Virus record (IMG/VR): IMGVR_UViG_2718218168_000002
Length of the DNA: 45,859 bases
Reading direction: 5' to 3' (one strand)
DNA from: a virus
Lineage: Duplodnaviria; Heunggongvirae; Uroviricota; Caudoviricetes
The notes under the pieces are model-generated. The model saw only the letters and a list, made by a program, of their open reading frames with translations. It searched no databases and was not told where the DNA came from. This document shows, piece after piece, positions 3,527 through 44,851 of the stretch (its first letter is position 1; every line of letters starts with the position of its first letter). The translations under genes and the position numbers were made by a program.

Positions 3527-4126
3527 TCACTCTCCTTTGATGCGAATGCCTGCGGCGCGTGGCACATTAACTTCCACGATGCGCACAGTTGGTTTGTACA
3601 TCTCAATCGCTGTCAGCCAGTCAGCGCCGGTCATATGCTTTTCTGCATCGCCATTAGTCCATTGAACCGGCACACCAATAGCTTTCATCGCAATTTCTAT
3701 TTCCCCGGCAATGGCGCTTTTCCCGCAACCAGTAAAACCAGAGACAACGACAAGAACTTCGCCTTTGGCTGGTTTTATTTCCCGTGCTTCCAGTTCAGCA
3801 ATACGCTTACTCCCATCCGAGATAACACCTTCGTAATACTCACGCTGCTCGTTGAGTTTTGATTTTGCTGCCTCCAGTTCGTCCAGTAGTGCAATCACAT
3901 CAGGGGCACTGTCATCAACTACTGTTACGCGTGATTTTTCATAATGCTCGTCGGCAAGTGTTCGACCAATTTTGAAATCTCCATCACCACCATAACTGGA
4001 GCAGGCATAAGTGACATGTGCTCCAGATATACGCTGTATTGACATTTCCTCGCCACAAACAGAGCATTCAGGTACTGGCTTAGGTGAATAACGTTCCCGT
4101 AGCGCCTGATAATCAATCTTGCTCAC
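3527..4126 (-). CDS. Ea22-like early protein (hypothetical)
   Basis: 199-aa ORF with an N-terminal Cys cluster and a coiled-coil-like middle, as in ead/Ea22-family proteins of lambdoid early-left regions. Confidence 0.5.
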   Translation of the reverse strand: MSKIDYQALRERYSPKPVPECSVCGEEMSIQRISGAHVTYACSSYGGDGDFKIGRTLADEHYEKSRVTVVDDSAPDVIALLDELEAAKSKLNEQREYYEGVISDGSKRIAELEAREIKPAKGEVLVVVSGFTGCGKSAIAGEIEIAMKAIGVPVQWTNGDAEKHMTGADWLTAIEMYKPTVRIVEVNVPRAAGIRIKGE

Positions 4127-4178
4127 TGGTTGCCCCCTGCTTTTCTGCCTTCAACACCATGTGCGAACCATCATCCAG

Positions 4179-4367
4179 CTACCACGCGATCTCACCACCT
4201 TCAGCCATAACCAGTCGCCACACCAATTGAGCAGCCTCATTGGTAACATCACGACCTGGATCATTGCCAACGCGCATACGCCCACCTTCAACATCGCGCA
4301 TTTTTGCCAGCATGATAGTTTTTGATAGCGGTGAAAAACCAAGCTGTAGTCGTGCTGAATTACTCAC
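4179..4367 (-). CDS. Small hypothetical ORF
   Basis: 62-aa ORF in a head-to-tail chain of small leftward ORFs; no recognisable motif. Confidence 0.3.
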
Positions 4368-4549
4368 TGGTTGCCTCCTTTGCGCAACATCGCATTCAGA
4401 TATTTGTTTTTATTCACTGATGGAAAAGAATTTCTCTTAAGCAATTCCTCTCTCGATGGCATTGGCTTTACGCGTTGGCGAATAATCATTTCTGCCGGAA
4501 GAATGCCGGGATTGTATGCAAGTCCTCTCATGGTAAATTCCTCAGTCAT
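4364..4549 (-). CDS. Small hypothetical ORF
   Basis: Internal-start version of track ORF 4364..4564; start ambiguous. Confidence 0.3.
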
Positions 4550-4838
4550 TACTGATAGCGCCATAGCGTGAGCGGTAATTACGCAGGCGCGGGTCGATAT
4601 ATTCAGGGAATTTGTCTATTGTCGCTTTTCGCAACGGTCGCATTGCTGTTTCGTTTGTTCGGTCCCTCTCATCTTTTAACGCGAGCTGTATATCGCGTCG
4701 GTACATCCGTTCTGCTTTTGTTTCTGGTGTCAGGGCAATAAACGTGTCGAAATTGTTTTTGATATTTTCCAGCACCTCCGCCTTGGAGCTACCGGAGCAG
4801 TTGCGCGGGTCATCCGCACCATACAGAGGCGCTGGCAT
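4542..4838 (-). CDS. Hypothetical phage protein
   Basis: 98-aa ORF in the leftward operon, immediately downstream of the DUF669-like gene. Confidence 0.4.
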
Positions 4839-4861
4839 AATGGGAGCCTTATTTTCAGTAA

Positions 4862-5449
4862 TCAGAAAGGAGGGTAATCGTTCTGGCTGTAACCATAATC
4901 ATCTGCATGATTCTGGATTACGTTTTTAGAGCGATTGTCTTTATCTTTGAGACTGGCAACCATGTTGGCGATAGTTTCTGGTTGCTTGCCTTCCGCCTTT
5001 TCTTTAAGGGTTTGACCAGTTTGTGCAATAAACGGGATGCGTATTTCCATCTGGTAGCTGTCTGCGCCAGTCTTTTTGTTTGTGGTTAATACTTTCTGGA
5101 GCACCAACCCGATTTTCTTTCCATGAAATTCAGGTGCAACAAATTTACTGACGGAAATCATATGTTGCGTTAACTGCCCAATCCCGGCACACCCCATCAT
5201 GGCGTGAACGACATTTGCGCCAAATTTGTTTTCCGTTCCGTCATTTTTCTGAACGCAGACGCTAAGATATTGGATTTTACGTCCGTCGTCGGATTCGCCA
5301 GAAAACTCAATAAATTTGGCTCCTTTTTCTGATTGCTTTAGTTCTGCTTCAGTAATGGTAATGATATGAGCGCCAGTTTCGTTAATAAAACCACCTTGCC
5401 CTGCTGTCAGTGCTGCTTCTTCGTTATAAGTAAAAATCACGTTGCTCAT
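4862..5449 (-). CDS. DUF669-like ssDNA-binding protein with SSB-like acidic C-terminal tip
   Basis: 195-aa ORF ending in DYPPF (compare the SSB DDDIPF tip); overlaps the upstream ATPase gene by 4 nt, the usual Sak4/DUF669 pairing. Confidence 0.5.
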   Translation of the reverse strand: MSNVIFTYNEEAALTAGQGGFINETGAHIITITEAELKQSEKGAKFIEFSGESDDGRKIQYLSVCVQKNDGTENKFGANVVHAMMGCAGIGQLTQHMISVSKFVAPEFHGKKIGLVLQKVLTTNKKTGADSYQMEIRIPFIAQTGQTLKEKAEGKQPETIANMVASLKDKDNRSKNVIQNHADDYGYSQNDYPPF

Positions 5450-6126
5450 GCGGCGTTTTCCTTAATTTGATGAACATTATTGATGCCGTAGTAATCACAA
5501 ACAGTGGCATCGACAAAAGAGAGATCGTTATCAATCTCATTGGAATCAAACATTCCCATTGGGGATTTAACAGTGTCTGCACCGTTGTTTTTCGTGGTGA
5601 AAAAGAACTGGTCATCACGGGTAAGGGTGCGAAGAACTATAGTAAACATGCCTTCGACAGTGATTTTCTCGTCCAGCATTTTGCCGATAGTTTTCATTTT
5701 CACGCGCCCCATAGGGGTTTCTTCTGTGTGCGCAAGAAAATAGACTCTCAGGTCATCAGGTGCATCCTGTGCAGCCTTAATCACCTCCCATGCGTGGCGG
5801 CCTATCTCAGTAAATTTATCAAACGATTTTTCTTCTGAGCGGCGCATAAACTCATTGCTCATCACATACTGGAAGTCATCAACAATAACGATTCTTTTCC
5901 CGTATTCGTGAGCACGCTTAATTACGGCAACTATTACGTCCCATTTGTCAGTGGTAACTACGGTTCCTTTTTTTGCTCTGGCATCCCATGCCAGCCATTC
6001 TTTTGATTTAAAAGGTAGCGGCTTGCCTATTGGTTTTATAAGTATTGCTTCCTCTGGATTGATATTTCTCATGCTGGTTGATTTTCCGGTGCCAGATTCA
6101 CCGAGTATTAATGTCGCAGTTCCCAT
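5446..6126 (-). CDS. Sak4-like AAA_24 ATPase (phage recombination)
   Basis: 226-aa ORF with N-terminal Walker A GESGTGKST and a Walker B-like IVIVDD; occupies the position of lambda Red. Confidence 0.6.
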   Translation of the reverse strand: MGTATLILGESGTGKSTSMRNINPEEAILIKPIGKPLPFKSKEWLAWDARAKKGTVVTTDKWDVIVAVIKRAHEYGKRIVIVDDFQYVMSNEFMRRSEEKSFDKFTEIGRHAWEVIKAAQDAPDDLRVYFLAHTEETPMGRVKMKTIGKMLDEKITVEGMFTIVLRTLTRDDQFFFTTKNNGADTVKSPMGMFDSNEIDNDLSFVDATVCDYYGINNVHQIKENAA

Positions 6127-6134
6127 AATTTGCC

Positions 6135-6335
6135 TCAGAATGGTAATTCGGATGGGACGGAAAGAAATTCGCGCTCATTCATGCGCTCTCTTTGAGCCTG
6201 CCATAAACAAAGTTGTTTCTTTGATTTATCTCCCGCTTTACGCCAGTAACGAGCCTCAGCAATGTGATATTCTCTTTTTAATCGACTTAATTCTGGAGTT
6301 TTCGCCAGTTCTACCGGAATCATTTTGACCTCCAT
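6135..6335 (-). CDS. Hypothetical phage protein
   Basis: 66-aa ORF directly downstream of kil; overlaps the kil end by 16 nt. Confidence 0.35.
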   Translation of the reverse strand: MEVKMIPVELAKTPELSRLKREYHIAEARYWRKAGDKSKKQLCLWQAQRERMNEREFLSVPSELPF

Positions 6336-6433
6336 TTTCTGTAGGCTTCGATGGCCTCACGAAACATCTTTTCATCGCCAATAAAAGTGGCGATAGTGAA
6401 TTTAGTCTGGATAGCCATAAGTGTTTTATCCAT
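6320..6433 (-). CDS. kil: Kil-like host-killing protein
   Basis: 37-aa product MDKTLMAIQTKFTIATFIGDEKMFREAIEAYRKW from the internal ATG of track ORF 6320..6559; recalled as lambda Kil-like; directly follows cIII as in lambda. Confidence 0.5.
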   Translation of the reverse strand: MDKTLMAIQTKFTIATFIGDEKMFREAIEAYRKWRSK

Positions 6434-6566
6434 TTTTGGGAACTCCTGGCTGATTAAGTACGTCGATGAGTCGTTTCCATCCGTCACGTAATTTGCGGGT
6501 GATTCGTTCAAGTAAAGATTCGGAAGGGCAGCCAGCAACAGGCCACCCTGCAATGGCATATTGCAT
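6426..6566 (-). CDS. cIII: CIII-like protease inhibitor
   Basis: 46-aa ORF below the track cutoff: MQYAIAGWPVAGCPSESLLERITRKLRDGWKRLIDVLNQPGVPKNG, matching recalled lambda CIII; AAGGAG Shine-Dalgarno upstream. Confidence 0.65.
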   Translation of the reverse strand: MQYAIAGWPVAGCPSESLLERITRKLRDGWKRLIDVLNQPGVPKNG

Positions 6567-6645
6567 GGTGTGCTCCTTATTTATACATAACGAAAACGCC
6601 TCAAGTGAAGCGTTATTGGTATGCGGTAAAGCCGCGCTCAGGCGG

Positions 6646-6894
6646 CTACTCTATTTCTTCTTCGAATGATTTTATTAGCCGGTCAATAACATCATCTGTT
6701 TCAATATCATTTCCGTCTGATTGCTTTAATACGTCTATTGATTCTGCTGCGGTAAATTCCATCGCTGTGAGAAACTCGACAATTGCACACTCAACGACAT
6801 GTCGTTCTTCATCTGTACGACATGAGATAAAAGAGCATTTAATTGCTGTTATTACTTTTTGTTTAAGTTCTGCAGGATAATCAGTTTTTATCAT
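6646..6894 (-). CDS. Hypothetical phage protein
   Basis: 82-aa acidic ORF in the pL operon, with GGAG before the ATG. Confidence 0.45.
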   Translation of the reverse strand: MIKTDYPAELKQKVITAIKCSFISCRTDEERHVVECAIVEFLTAMEFTAAESIDVLKQSDGNDIETDDVIDRLIKSFEEEIE

Positions 6895-16495: not shown

Positions 16496-16586
16496 TTGAC
16501 GCGATGATTTATTCGGGGCTATATTCCCAGCACGCCAGCAAAATCTGGCGTCGGGATTGGAACCCCGGATAGAGACCGCGACAAAC

Positions 16587-16610
16587 ACACGCCGCGAGCG
16601 TGTTTTTTAT
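16587..16610 (+). terminator. Rho-independent terminator upstream of the ORF6N moron
   Basis: Stem acacgc/gcgtgt with loop cgcga, followed by tttttatt. Confidence 0.5.
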
Positions 16611-16769
16611 TGTCGTATGCACGCGCACATCTGAATTATGGTGGGGCGCATGGGGGAGCTGAAAAGCTCGCCGGTCGGTTTCCCGGTAGTTCCAACCCTG
16701 TGCGTCTCACCACCCGATGATTGGAACCTGACGGTGGTGATAGTTTAGAAACCACCAGAGGGCGTCATT

Positions 16770-36958: not shown

Positions 36959-38020
36959 ATGTCACAGAACTGGATGAGACATTTCGAGCTGCAGCTTGTG
37001 GACGGGAACGGTAAGGGAATTGAGCTAAGTGATTTCAAAGTCACCTTTACGATCGACTGGTTCAACATCAGCAGCGCGTCCCGGGTAGGGACTATCAAAA
37101 TTTATAACCTTTCGGCAGATACTGTGAACCGAATTACCGGGCAGGAGTTTTCGAAAGTGCGGCTGATTGCCGGTTACGACGGTATCGCGCCGGAGGTGGC
37201 GGCAAGCGACGTCGGGACTGTGCGTGAAGTTGACGCGGCGGACGTGGGCCAGAGTGATGGCCGCAACTACGGGCTGATTTTCAGCGGAGAAATTCGCTAC
37301 TCGGTCACAGGAAAAGACAGTCCGGTTGATACCTACGTCCTGATTCAGGCAGCAGATACTGATCTGGCATTTGCCACCAGTATAACCTCACAGACGCTGG
37401 CTGCCGGTTACACAGTCGCAGATGTGAACCGTGCGCTGATGAAAGACTTTGAGGCCAAAGGCGCGACCGAAGGACTGACACCTGAAATGCCTGCTACCGT
37501 ATACCCTCGAGGGCGGGTGCTGTTCGGCATGACACGGCATCTTATGGATAACGTGGCCGGACAATGTGGCGCAACATGGCAATTTGTGGACGGTCAGCGC
37601 CAGATGGTGGCGAATAACGAGTATGTTCACGACGCGATTGTGCTCAACAGCGCCACCGGGCTTATCGGCATGCCGCAGCAGACTATCGGTAACGGCGTAA
37701 ACGTCCGCGCTCTTATTAATCCGAACATCCGGGTTAACGGGCTTATTCAGCTGGATCAGGCTTCCGTGTACCGCACCGCGCTGTCGAACAATGATATCGC
37801 GATGGCTGGTGGGCAGATCACCGACCAGAACACAGACGGAAATATCACGCTCAGCGGCACCACAGCACAACCTGCCAGCATCGCAACGGATGGCGTTTAT
37901 ATTGTGCGCGGGATTATGTACACTGGCGATACAAGGGGCCAGGCGTGGTACATGGATATGATGTGCGAAGCGCGTGGCGCGGCGGATCTGTATACGCAAT
38001 CGGCTTTGCAAAGGGGATGA
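36959..38020 (+). CDS. Tail/baseplate hub-like protein (hypothetical)
   Basis: 353-aa ORF between tape-measure-proximal genes and the baseplate cluster; position-based. Confidence 0.45.
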   Translation: MSQNWMRHFELQLVDGNGKGIELSDFKVTFTIDWFNISSASRVGTIKIYNLSADTVNRITGQEFSKVRLIAGYDGIAPEVAASDVGTVREVDAADVGQSDGRNYGLIFSGEIRYSVTGKDSPVDTYVLIQAADTDLAFATSITSQTLAAGYTVADVNRALMKDFEAKGATEGLTPEMPATVYPRGRVLFGMTRHLMDNVAGQCGATWQFVDGQRQMVANNEYVHDAIVLNSATGLIGMPQQTIGNGVNVRALINPNIRVNGLIQLDQASVYRTALSNNDIAMAGGQITDQNTDGNITLSGTTAQPASIATDGVYIVRGIMYTGDTRGQAWYMDMMCEARGAADLYTQSALQRG

Positions 38021-38023
38021 GCA

Positions 38024-38365
38024 ATGAGGGGTATCATTTTTCTGTTAGCTGTCTTTTCTGCGTGCAGCGTGTGGGCGGATGGCTTCACGGTTAAATGCGG
38101 TGGCTACACTATGGTTGCAAACCAGGGCGAGTTATCGACAATTAACGGTGAAAGAGTTACCTCTCAAAAAATCACCGAACTGGGTACCAATGGTTTGAAA
38201 GTAGACATGGGGATTATGCCTGCCAAAGACGGTAACAACTACGGCTTTGAATACATTCGTCGCCCTGGTACCGAAACGCGATTCCTGAATGTGCAACTGC
38301 TGCAGAACAGCATGGATGCGCCGAAAATCATCGGTTCCTTTCCATGCAAAAAGATTGTTGATTAA
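38024..38365 (+). CDS. Secreted or lipoprotein moron (uncharacterised)
   Basis: 113-aa ORF with signal peptide MRGIIFLLAVFSACSVWA (possible lipobox FSAC); unlike the flanking structural genes. Confidence 0.5.
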   Translation: MRGIIFLLAVFSACSVWADGFTVKCGGYTMVANQGELSTINGERVTSQKITELGTNGLKVDMGIMPAKDGNNYGFEYIRRPGTETRFLNVQLLQNSMDAPKIIGSFPCKKIVD

Positions 38366-38418
38366 TCACTCGTAATTATAATGTGATACTTCTACTTTCA
38401 CGATAAGGAATTTGTCGC

Positions 38419-38658
38419 ATGTTCGGATTTGATAAATTAATAACTCCAAAAATCATCAACGTTCTGTATGGCATCACAATGTTACTTCTGGTTGTTGCCG
38501 CCATTATAACGTTTGTTAATGGGAAGGCTGCTGGCGCTTTAGTGCTTTTGTTATGTGCTGTATTTTGCCGAATATTTTTTGAGTGCATCATGGTTTCATT
38601 TAAAAACAATGAGTATCTTCGCCGAATAGCTGAAGCGTTAGAAGCAAACAAGCAGTAA
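38419..38658 (+). CDS. Small inner-membrane protein moron (two predicted TM helices)
   Basis: 79-aa ORF with own AAGGAA Shine-Dalgarno; two hydrophobic stretches; followed by a terminator. Confidence 0.5.
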   Translation: MFGFDKLITPKIINVLYGITMLLLVVAAIITFVNGKAAGALVLLLCAVFCRIFFECIMVSFKNNEYLRRIAEALEANKQ

Positions 38659-38674
38659 TGAAACTTCAATAATG

Positions 38675-38698
38675 AACCCGCCACCCGGCGGGTTTTTT
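38675..38698 (+). terminator. Rho-independent terminator after the tail-region moron
   Basis: Stem aacccgcc/ggcgggtt with loop accc, overlapping a TTTTTT run. Confidence 0.6.
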
Positions 38699-38717
38699 GC
38701 TTTCTGGAGCCTACTAA

Positions 38718-39473
38718 ATGGCAGTATCTGACCAGACCCGCAGCGGCGACCTTGCCGAAACATTCAAATCTGAACGGGAAACAACAAAGAACCAGATCCG
38801 TGTCGCCTTGCCTGGCATTGTTCAGTCATTCGATCCCGACGCGGTGACGGCGGTTGTGCAGCCAGCTATCCGTTCGGTTGAAAAGGATAACGACGGTAAC
38901 CGCATTACCAAAAATTACCCGTTGCTGGTGGATGTGCCAGTGGTATTTCCGCGCGGTGGAGGCTGTACGTTGACTTTTCCGGTTAAAGCCGGGGATGAAT
39001 GCCTGGTGATTTTCGCCGACCGCTGCATCGATTTCTGGTGGCAGAACGGCGGGGTGCAGGAGCCTGTCGACGACCGGGTGCATGATTTATCGGATGCTTT
39101 CTGTATCGTCGGGCCGCAGTCTCAGGCGCAGAAAATAAGCGGAATAAGCACCAGTGGCGCGCAGCTGCGTACTGATGATGGCGCTGCGTTTGTGGAAGTG
39201 GCCGCAGGCCATAATATCACGGTTAAAACTCCCGGCGCGTTGACGGCGACAGCAGAAGGAGGAACCACGATCACATCACCCACCATCACGCTAAACGGCA
39301 ACGTGACAATAAACGGGAATCTCTCTCAGGGGATGGGCGAAAGCGGCGGCACCGCGACGATGCTTGGCCCTGTCACGGTGACTAACGATGTAAAAGCTGG
39401 TGGTAAGAGCCTGATGACGCACACGCACGGCGGAGTACAGACCGGCGGCGGTAACACAGGAGCGCCTAACTGA
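38718..39473 (+). CDS. Baseplate spike protein (gpV-like)
   Basis: 251-aa ORF heading a V-W-J-I-H-G-like gene order; Gly/Thr-rich C-terminal region with HTHGG. Confidence 0.55.
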   Translation: MAVSDQTRSGDLAETFKSERETTKNQIRVALPGIVQSFDPDAVTAVVQPAIRSVEKDNDGNRITKNYPLLVDVPVVFPRGGGCTLTFPVKAGDECLVIFADRCIDFWWQNGGVQEPVDDRVHDLSDAFCIVGPQSQAQKISGISTSGAQLRTDDGAAFVEVAAGHNITVKTPGALTATAEGGTTITSPTITLNGNVTINGNLSQGMGESGGTATMLGPVTVTNDVKAGGKSLMTHTHGGVQTGGGNTGAPN

Positions 39474-44775: not shown

Positions 44776-44851
44776 ATGGTGTCCCCTGCAGGAATCGAAC
44801 CTGCAATTAGCCCTTAGGAGGGGCTCGTTATATCCATTTAACTAAGAGGAC
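44776..44851 (-). tRNA. argW: tRNA-Arg (anticodon CCU)
   Basis: Minus-strand cloverleaf: acceptor GTCCTCT/AGGGGAC, D stem GTTA/TAAC, anticodon stem AGCCC/GGGCT with loop CTCCTAA, T arm GCAGG-TTCGATT-CCTGC, discriminator A, CCA. Confidence 0.9.

Follow-up and report, generated by a model that had tools for sequence, protein, structure and literature searches.

A predicted exported partner of the baseplate hub gene and a separate DUF4282 cargo cassette between the hub and spike genes of a SEN34-like Escherichia coli prophage

The DNA analyzed in this study, IMG/VR virus record IMGVR_UViG_2718218168_000002 (45,859 nucleotides, referred to as the window), belongs to the prophage type that occurs in Escherichia coli O145:H28 RM12581. 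It combines lambda-like early genes with a contractile tail related to that of Salmonella phage SEN34 (PMC5261728), and is a SEN34-like temperate myovirus of E. coli. Between the gene for its baseplate hub (PHROG 196, E217_GP41-like) and the gene for its spike lie two small open reading frames (ORFs), ORF1 and ORF2, followed by a terminator hairpin (Table 1). A first-pass annotation had described this interval, inside the baseplate cluster, as a single two-gene envelope moron: a signal-peptide or lipoprotein gene and a gene for a small two-transmembrane (two-TM) protein, with separate ribosome-binding sites (RBSs) and a terminator. The position and the RBSs were confirmed, the latter being GGGGA, 7 nt upstream of ORF1, and AAGGA, 8 nt upstream of ORF2. 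Both ORFs are also real genes based on their family matches: phrog_3443 for ORF1 (E = 2e-47), and phrog_12129 (E = 8e-48) and DUF4282 for ORF2. The analysis nevertheless separates the two into independent accessory genes. Specifically, we consider it highly probable that ORF1 encodes a Sec-exported, probably disulfide-bonded small beta protein and is fixed to the hub gene, and that ORF2, in a DUF4282 cassette, occupies a separate cargo slot with a hairpin that belongs to the phage backbone.

The ORF1 gene is tied to the hub gene. In the window, ORF1 starts 4 nt after the hub stop codon, and in all of approximately 95 ORF1 loci, drawn from phage records, IMG/VR, Logan, and NCBI public assemblies, the homologue begins 3–10 nt past that codon. 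This spacing is kept even in a Klebsiella phage whose ORF1 protein is only 25% identical. A species survey using the hub protein as the query and one genome per species gave a similar picture: of 41 informative Enterobacterales loci, approximately 34 have an ORF1-family gene directly behind the hub gene, with hub identities as low as 48%. The exceptions included three loci with an unrelated lipoprotein or exported protein in place of ORF1 and three with nothing. ORF1 is kept also where the cargo slot is empty. A promoter scan of the window revealed no promoter-like site upstream of ORF1, and the late operon is therefore most likely what transcribes it. ORF1 is a lineage-wide resident gene, not an insertion equipped with its own promoter and terminator as a moron would be. 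Its alleles, the spike alleles, and the cargo classes assort independently, with all combinations found.

Some relatives of ORF1 occur in other arrangements. The chromosome of Serratia aquatilis carries five tandem, divergent ORF1 paralogues with 29–83% pairwise identity (locus L213, positions 4092–6745); each has a signal peptide, and remnants of the hub 3′ end lie between them. This array looks like stacked immunity-type genes. At another locus (L078, approximately 4353–4718), the resident ORF1 homologue is immediately followed by cargo encoding another, divergent exported protein of the ORF1 type (121 residues), with the signal peptide MKKTVFLLLALLSSNAFA and cysteines near both ends. In SEN34 itself, the deposited SEN34_20 protein is 77 residues long and begins at an internal Met; tblastn yields a full 113-residue ORF1 homologue with a signal peptide (L003, 2630–2971), such that the annotated start is probably too far downstream. 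Finally, three Klebsiella relatives (L018, L020, and L022) share an identical ORF1 protein and differ in whether their tape-measure proteins contain a Pfam SLT (lytic transglycosylase) domain. Mosaicism in this lineage thus extends to the tape-measure C-terminus.

The ORF1 protein begins with MRG, a hydrophobic core of 10 residues, and V-W-A ahead of the cut. Across 118 homologues, positions −3 and −1 always follow the pattern A/V-x-A, based on which a cleavable Sec signal peptide cut by signal peptidase I after A18 is predicted. The N-terminal 19 residues are the most variable segment of the protein in the same homologues (entropy of 1.26 versus 0.41 in the core). A lipoprotein was rejected for the family as a whole: Cys14 occurs in only 7 of the 118 homologues, and the signal peptidase I pattern is conserved instead. 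Of the two possibilities left open by the first-pass annotation, the signal peptide thus stands and the lipoprotein does not. The mature protein, of approximately 95 residues, is predicted to be all-beta, albeit from a low-confidence model (predicted local distance difference test score, pLDDT, of 55), and its N-terminal third is more variable than its core. Two cysteines near the ends of the mature protein, C25 and C108, are invariant even in relatives of 24–28% identity, as would be consistent with a disulfide formed in the periplasm.

The family is small and confined to one bacterial order. An exhaustive profile search of 1.84 billion representative proteins yielded 41 clusters, and all 384 ORF1 homologues are from Enterobacterales. 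The few giant multi-repeat proteins among the profile matches (P0230 and P0247) look like generic beta-repeat or compositional matches. ORF1 had no match in Pfam, NCBIfam, or PADLOC and no relative among solved structures. One alternative, that ORF1 is a periplasmic inhibitor of muralytic enzymes directed against the tail-borne lysins of incoming phages, either similar to T4 Spackle or a small beta barrel with an N-to-C disulfide similar to PliC/MliC, appears very improbable to us.

A structural role for ORF1 had also to be considered, either as a baseplate protein in the virion or as an assembly chaperone for the hub or spike. Such a role would account for the strict synteny with the hub, the 4-nt spacing, which suggests translational coupling, the strongly conserved core, and the lack of an own promoter. 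However, every member of the family has a cleavable-type signal peptide, the invariant cysteine pair fits a periplasmic disulfide, and tails are built in the cytoplasm. Moreover, the gene is missing at three hub loci, is swapped for unrelated lipoproteins in three, and is present as five tandem copies in one. We therefore hold little belief in a structural ORF1. The SEN34 paper (PMC5261728) does not include virion proteomics.

Downstream of ORF1, the locus is hypervariable. The stretch from the ORF1 stop codon to the spike start ranges from 61 bp in empty sites (L082 and L086) to 1845 bp, and the order is fixed: hub, ORF1, cargo, terminator, spike. The slot carries at least 28 unrelated classes of cargo, and the DUF4282 cassette is one of these. 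The cassette comprises 308 bp of low GC content (38366–38673), inserted after the ORF1 stop codon and ahead of the backbone hairpin. The GC content is 0.371 in ORF2 and 0.34 in the intergenic region that precedes it (IGR1, 38366–38418), as compared to 0.465 in ORF1 and 0.52–0.565 in the neighboring genes; at third codon positions, it is 0.375 in ORF2 versus approximately 0.6 in the neighbors. Among 5,426 complete E. coli genomes, the flanks were found in 332 and the cassette in 85, in 83 of which it is at least 99% identical. Near-identical prophages differ in whether they carry it. ORF2 behaves like an accessory cassette gained by horizontal transfer, with the patchy presence and deviating GC content of a moron.

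The other cargoes of the slot include three that are recognizable: a PD-Lambda-1 homologue (PADLOC E = 1e-84), a YafO toxin module, and an EACC1 protein. The remainder include several two-gene modules and membrane proteins with no assigned function. The PD-Lambda-1 homologue, a membrane-anchored protein of 409 residues, is found at two loci (L103 and L104) in the slot that holds DUF4282 in the window. PD-Lambda-1, since renamed SNIPE, is a nuclease bound to the membrane; it contacts tape-measure proteins and cleaves phage DNA as the DNA is injected (PMC13190303). Based on the PD-Lambda-1/SNIPE, YafO, and EACC1 cargoes, the slot is a hotspot for conflict genes. By analogy with the known anti-phage genes that occupy the same slot in related phages, a role in exclusion or defence is plausible for its cargo.

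The sequences of the slot and its edges also suggest how cargo may be exchanged. Recombination that replaces one cargo with another could plausibly use the shared hairpins and the conserved ORF1 3′ end as anchors. The DUF4282 cassettes of two further loci, one in the hub/spike slot (L137) and one between lambda-like genes I and J (L138), have a homologous 5′ leader and 3′ flank, which points to recombinational swapping. In SEN34, the spike gene and the baseplate gene that comes next are separated by an additional hydrophobic ORF of 45 residues, SEN34_23 (L003, 4294–4431), which has no counterpart in the window. This position may be another small cargo slot.

A candidate promoter precedes ORF2. 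It consists of TTGTTG (38355–38360), a 16-nt spacer, and a perfect −10 hexamer, TATAAT (38377–38382). The −35 hexamer overlaps the last codons of ORF1 and matches at three of six positions, which places the site below the threshold of the scan. In homologous DUF4282 cassettes at Pantoea-type loci, a TTGAAA-17-TAAGAT arrangement is conserved. The terminator predicted in the first-pass annotation is real: its stem (38674–38695) has 9 bp, of which six are G-C pairs, a run of T residues comes next, and the fold has a z-score of −2.8. It is not the property of a moron, however. This hairpin is shared by the empty sites and most cargo classes, and in 126 of 129 loci, empty sites included, the 80 nt ahead of the spike start contain a terminator-like hairpin. 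Because it is kept at empty sites and with other cargoes, the terminator is a feature of the backbone and not of the cassette. DUF4282 genes elsewhere also have terminators behind them. The simplest reading is that the hairpin would end prophage-state transcription of the cargo ahead of the spike gene, and that late, lytic transcription would be carried through it by a Q-type antiterminator. A gene of the Q family is present in the same prophage.

These results bear directly on whether ORF1 and ORF2 were gained as one block, a moron with its own RBSs and terminator. The two genes are adjacent and on the same strand, both have a GC content below that of the flanks, and a terminator follows them. 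Nevertheless, most ORF1 loci, empty sites among them, lack ORF2, and in other phage types there are ORF2 homologues unaccompanied by ORF1. The hairpin is found whatever the cargo, and the GC contents of the two genes are unlike each other. A gain as a single block is thus extremely improbable. Of the earlier description, the character of an acquired cassette applies to ORF2, with its low GC content, patchy presence, and promoter-like site; it does not extend to ORF1, which stays with the hub even at 25% identity and beside an empty slot.

Table 1. Features of the hub-to-spike interval and the two genes that flank it. Positions are those of the window.
Feature	Position	Strand	Remarks
Baseplate hub gene	36959..38020	+	phrog_196 baseplate hub, E = 9e-90; weak match to Pfam E217_GP41
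ORF1	38024..38365	+	113 aa, ATG start; exported protein (predicted) of the unnamed family phrog_3443; lineage backbone, outside the cassette
ORF1 signal peptide	38024..38077	+	residues 1–18, MRGIIFLLAVFSACSVWA; predicted signal peptidase I cut after A18
Promoter-like site for ORF2	38355..38382	+	candidate, read from the sequence
DUF4282 cargo cassette	38366..38673	+	bounds from comparison with empty sites L082 and L086 and 27 other cargo classes
ORF2	38419..38658	+	79 aa, ATG start; DUF4282 two-TM hairpin (predicted); PF14110
Terminator hairpin and T run	38674..38698	+	backbone feature; 3′ bound of the cargo slot
Baseplate spike gene	38718..39473	+	Pfam spike N-terminal domain, E = 1e-43; GpV Apex motif; RBS GGAG at 38706–38709

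ORF2 matches the Pfam DUF4282 profile with 42.2 bits, against a cut-off of 27, over positions 2–85 of 86, and its RefSeq name is likewise DUF4282 protein. Hydropathy is at least 1.6 throughout residues 12–61, in which two hydrophobic spans are joined by a loop of 3–5 residues, and the AlphaFold2 model (pLDDT of 86) is a helical hairpin with helices at residues 10–33 and 37–78. Most of the positive charge is at the N- and C-terminal sides, so ORF2 is predicted to be a two-TM hairpin of the inner membrane with both termini in the cytoplasm (N-in/C-in). The earlier two-TM call is upheld by the hydropathy and the model, as is the description of the two products as uncharacterized envelope proteins, one predicted to be exported and the other to lie in the inner membrane. 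The residues conserved in the ORF2 alignment are an N-terminal ITPK, R51 and E55 in the second TM helix (TM2), and FKNNEYLRRI just past TM2. A fold search with ORF2 against BFVD and PDB returned nothing below E = 0.4, as expected of a helical hairpin. Searches of Pfam, PHROGs, and NCBIfam with ORF1 and ORF2 gave only families of unknown function, PADLOC gave no match to either at E up to 1, and in the literature no paper mentioning DUF4282 was found.

To some extent, the features of ORF2 are those of a membrane-damaging effector or lysis regulator, either resembling a holin or antiholin or depolarizing the membrane as a small toxin or abortive-infection protein would. The two-TM N-in/C-in topology and charged C-terminus are similar to those of class II holins, R51 and E55 are invariant within TM2, the gene lies just behind the lysis cassette in Pantoea prophages, and its neighbors in the slot include toxin and abortive-type modules. 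When ORF2 was evaluated as a class II holin, the topology was compatible, but no holin family was matched and the lysis cassette of the prophage does not include the gene. That prophage, moreover, already has a complete lysis set, comprising holin, endolysin, and Rz1-like (LysC) genes; DUF4282 genes are most commonly located after tape-measure genes and not lysis genes; and a single protein of 79 residues has no evident sensor. We consider an effector or lysis role improbable on balance.

The location of DUF4282 genes in other phages was evaluated using 42 non-identical viral loci. In 33 of these, the gene lies 0–61 nt downstream of a large gene. This large gene encodes a TMP_3-type tape-measure protein in 8 of the 10 loci tested, with an SLT domain in one. 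Loci with DUF4282 after the tape-measure gene include phages with siphovirus-type and myovirus-type tails, such as Edwardsiella phage GF-2. The other placements are between lambda-like genes I and J, in the hub/spike slot (L137), and in a promoter-gene-terminator unit near lysis and terminase genes. Among relatives of a Klebsiella-type tape-measure protein, DUF4282 was present in 1 of 77 and was missing even at 98–99% tape-measure identity; the gene is therefore dispensable. Among relatives of a myovirus tape-measure protein, it was present in 33 of 49. In members of the myovirus group without DUF4282 (L230–L269), the slot after the tape-measure gene holds exported proteins of 245–260 residues or single-TM proteins of 66–93 residues. 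This suggests that the myovirus slot is dedicated to cargo that acts on the envelope. The divergence of DUF4282 proteins correlated moderately with that of the adjacent tape-measure proteins (Spearman coefficient of 0.47), a value that does not separate co-inheritance from functional matching.

Several known systems resemble parts of this locus. Llp of phage T5 and Cor of phages phi80 and N15 are lipoproteins that block an outer-membrane receptor and are encoded next to tail genes. Like these, ORF1 is a small protein, predicted to be exported, whose gene is linked to those of the host-recognition or penetration apparatus. Unlike them, it has no conserved lipobox and no match to a PHROG annotated as exclusion. 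Phage T4 pairs the inner-membrane protein Imm with the periplasmic protein Spackle, and ORF2 and ORF1 would similarly form a membrane-plus-periplasm pair. However, T4 is a lytic phage that expresses its pair early, and ORF1 and ORF2 are not co-inherited. Imm is an inner-membrane protein of approximately 9 kDa that binds the tape-measure protein and thereby prevents the genome from being translocated, and its model has four helices (bioRxiv 10.64898/2026.03.06.709160). In contrast, ORF2 is predicted as a two-helix hairpin and has no match to Pfam Imm_superinfect.

The product of HK97 gene 15 is an inner-membrane moron protein encoded beside the tape-measure gene, and the exclusion that it causes is conditional on which tail or tape-measure protein the incoming phage has (PMC3594210). 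Both gp15 and, by prediction, ORF2 are small inner-membrane proteins encoded by an accessory element inside a tail operon and dispensable for the virion. They are not related in sequence: gp15 is YebO-like with one TM helix, whereas ORF2 is a DUF4282 protein with two, and a phenotype is known for gp15 alone. In addition, gp15 adjoins the tape-measure gene, while the window cassette lies between the hub and spike genes. PD-Lambda-1/SNIPE, by comparison, has a homologue in exactly this ORF1-to-spike slot, and it is membrane-anchored and acts at the injection step. It differs in being a nuclease of approximately 400–500 residues with DUF4041 and T5orf172 domains, compared to the 79 residues of ORF2, which has no catalytic domain. 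Lastly, lambda-type morons such as bor and lom, and diversity hotspots, share with this locus accessory genes of deviating GC content, a fixed late-gene junction, and a terminator overridden by a late antiterminator. The differences are that the terminator here belongs to the backbone slot and that ORF1 is a lineage-wide resident.

Based on the abovementioned data, we propose that ORF1 and ORF2 both act on the entry of DNA from incoming phages, and thus in superinfection exclusion; we put the dual role at somewhat under even odds. For ORF2, the proposal follows from its predicted inner-membrane site, its dispensability, the recurrence of tape-measure and tail-tip neighbors in unrelated tails, the company it keeps in the slot, and the precedents of Imm and gp15. 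Specifically, ORF2 at the inner membrane would hinder the tape-measure protein in forming a channel, as T4 Imm and HK97 gp15 do. For ORF1, it follows from predicted export, the fixed link to the hub, replacement by other exported proteins, the variable N-terminal third, and the tandem arrays. ORF1 in the periplasm would target either a component of the tail tip or a host factor for entry, and its variable N-terminal third would set specificity.

A number of observations weigh against exclusion. ORF1 looks like a late gene without a promoter, making it doubtful that it is expressed in the lysogen, as classic exclusion requires. Its alleles, moreover, do not co-vary with the hub, the spike, or the tape-measure C-terminal domain of the same phage. 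The conserved residues of ORF2 are cytoplasmic or in the cytoplasmic half of TM2, a poor fit to a block on the periplasmic side, and the window's tape-measure protein is of a type other than TMP_3. In siphoviruses, the corresponding slot behind the tape-measure gene frequently carries nothing or, in place of membrane proteins, small soluble ones; tape-measure junctions are general hotspots for cargo, which may make the positional signal of DUF4282 partly non-specific. Neither ORF1 nor ORF2 matched the known superinfection-exclusion families T4 Imm, Spackle, gp15/YebO, Cor, Llp, and SieA in Pfam, PHROGs, or NCBIfam, and both the ORF1 and the DUF4282 families are functionally uncharacterized.

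Envelope proteins in an accessory position of the tail region might instead be lysogenic-conversion factors. One or both would then aid the host, through envelope stress, serum resistance, adhesion, or colicin tolerance, with no effect on phages, as in lambda Bor and Lom. Morons of this kind are known (PMC3594210), and the strains that carry the cassette are from diverse hosts. Against this, the recognizable cargoes of the slot are all conflict systems, DUF4282 also lies directly after the tape-measure gene in Edwardsiella phage GF-2, and ORF1 is seemingly expressed late only. Host-directed conversion is accordingly, to our judgment, a rather unlikely explanation. Overall, the best explanation of the locus remains the anatomy described here together with the exclusion mechanism, to which we assign a probability of roughly 0.5.

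An extended version of the exclusion proposal would have wider reach. DUF4282 would be a widespread, unrecognized tape-measure-directed immunity family and a third independent solution beside T4 Imm and HK97 gp15, and the ORF1 family would act in the periplasm as an exclusion factor with allele specificity, welded to the hub in SEN34-like myoviruses and sometimes arrayed. At this locus, the two would form a layered barrier of periplasm and inner membrane. We regard this version as speculative and unlikely in its entirety.

Other features of the window are as follows. The RefSeq name for the spike gene product is membrane-puncturing spike. A minus-strand ORF of 102 residues (38376–38684) was rejected as a gene: it covers all of ORF2, and the homology support is wholly for the plus strand. 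This antisense ORF is probably a by-product of the AT-rich cassette. Rfam identified no known RNA family inside the interval. Elsewhere in the window, it matched the lambda CIII thermoregulator (6521–6579, minus strand), the small RNA isrK beside a C4 antisense RNA with an a1/b1 target (16519–16717, plus strand), and, near the right end, a tRNA (44780–44851, minus strand).

Accessory genes at tail-gene junctions and defence hotspots in prophages are well known, and this locus adds a member rather than a kind. What is new here is the exact architecture of the slot, with a lineage-fixed gene for a predicted exported protein set apart from a mobile cassette, together with the linkage of DUF4282 to tape-measure genes and the arrays of ORF1. 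Were exclusion not to be confirmed, the locus would be an ordinary example of phage accessory cargo. As it stands, the hub-to-spike hotspot of a common family of enterobacterial prophages, bounded by a conserved gene for a predicted exported protein and a conserved terminator, is good ground for mining anti-phage genes. Two uncharacterized families are nominated for study: DUF4282, for its recurrent link to tape-measure genes, and the ORF1 family, which is predicted to be exported, is hub-linked, and is sometimes arrayed. If DUF4282 indeed blocks entry mediated by the tape-measure protein, this would support the deployment of small membrane immunity proteins against tape-measure pores as a general phage strategy.

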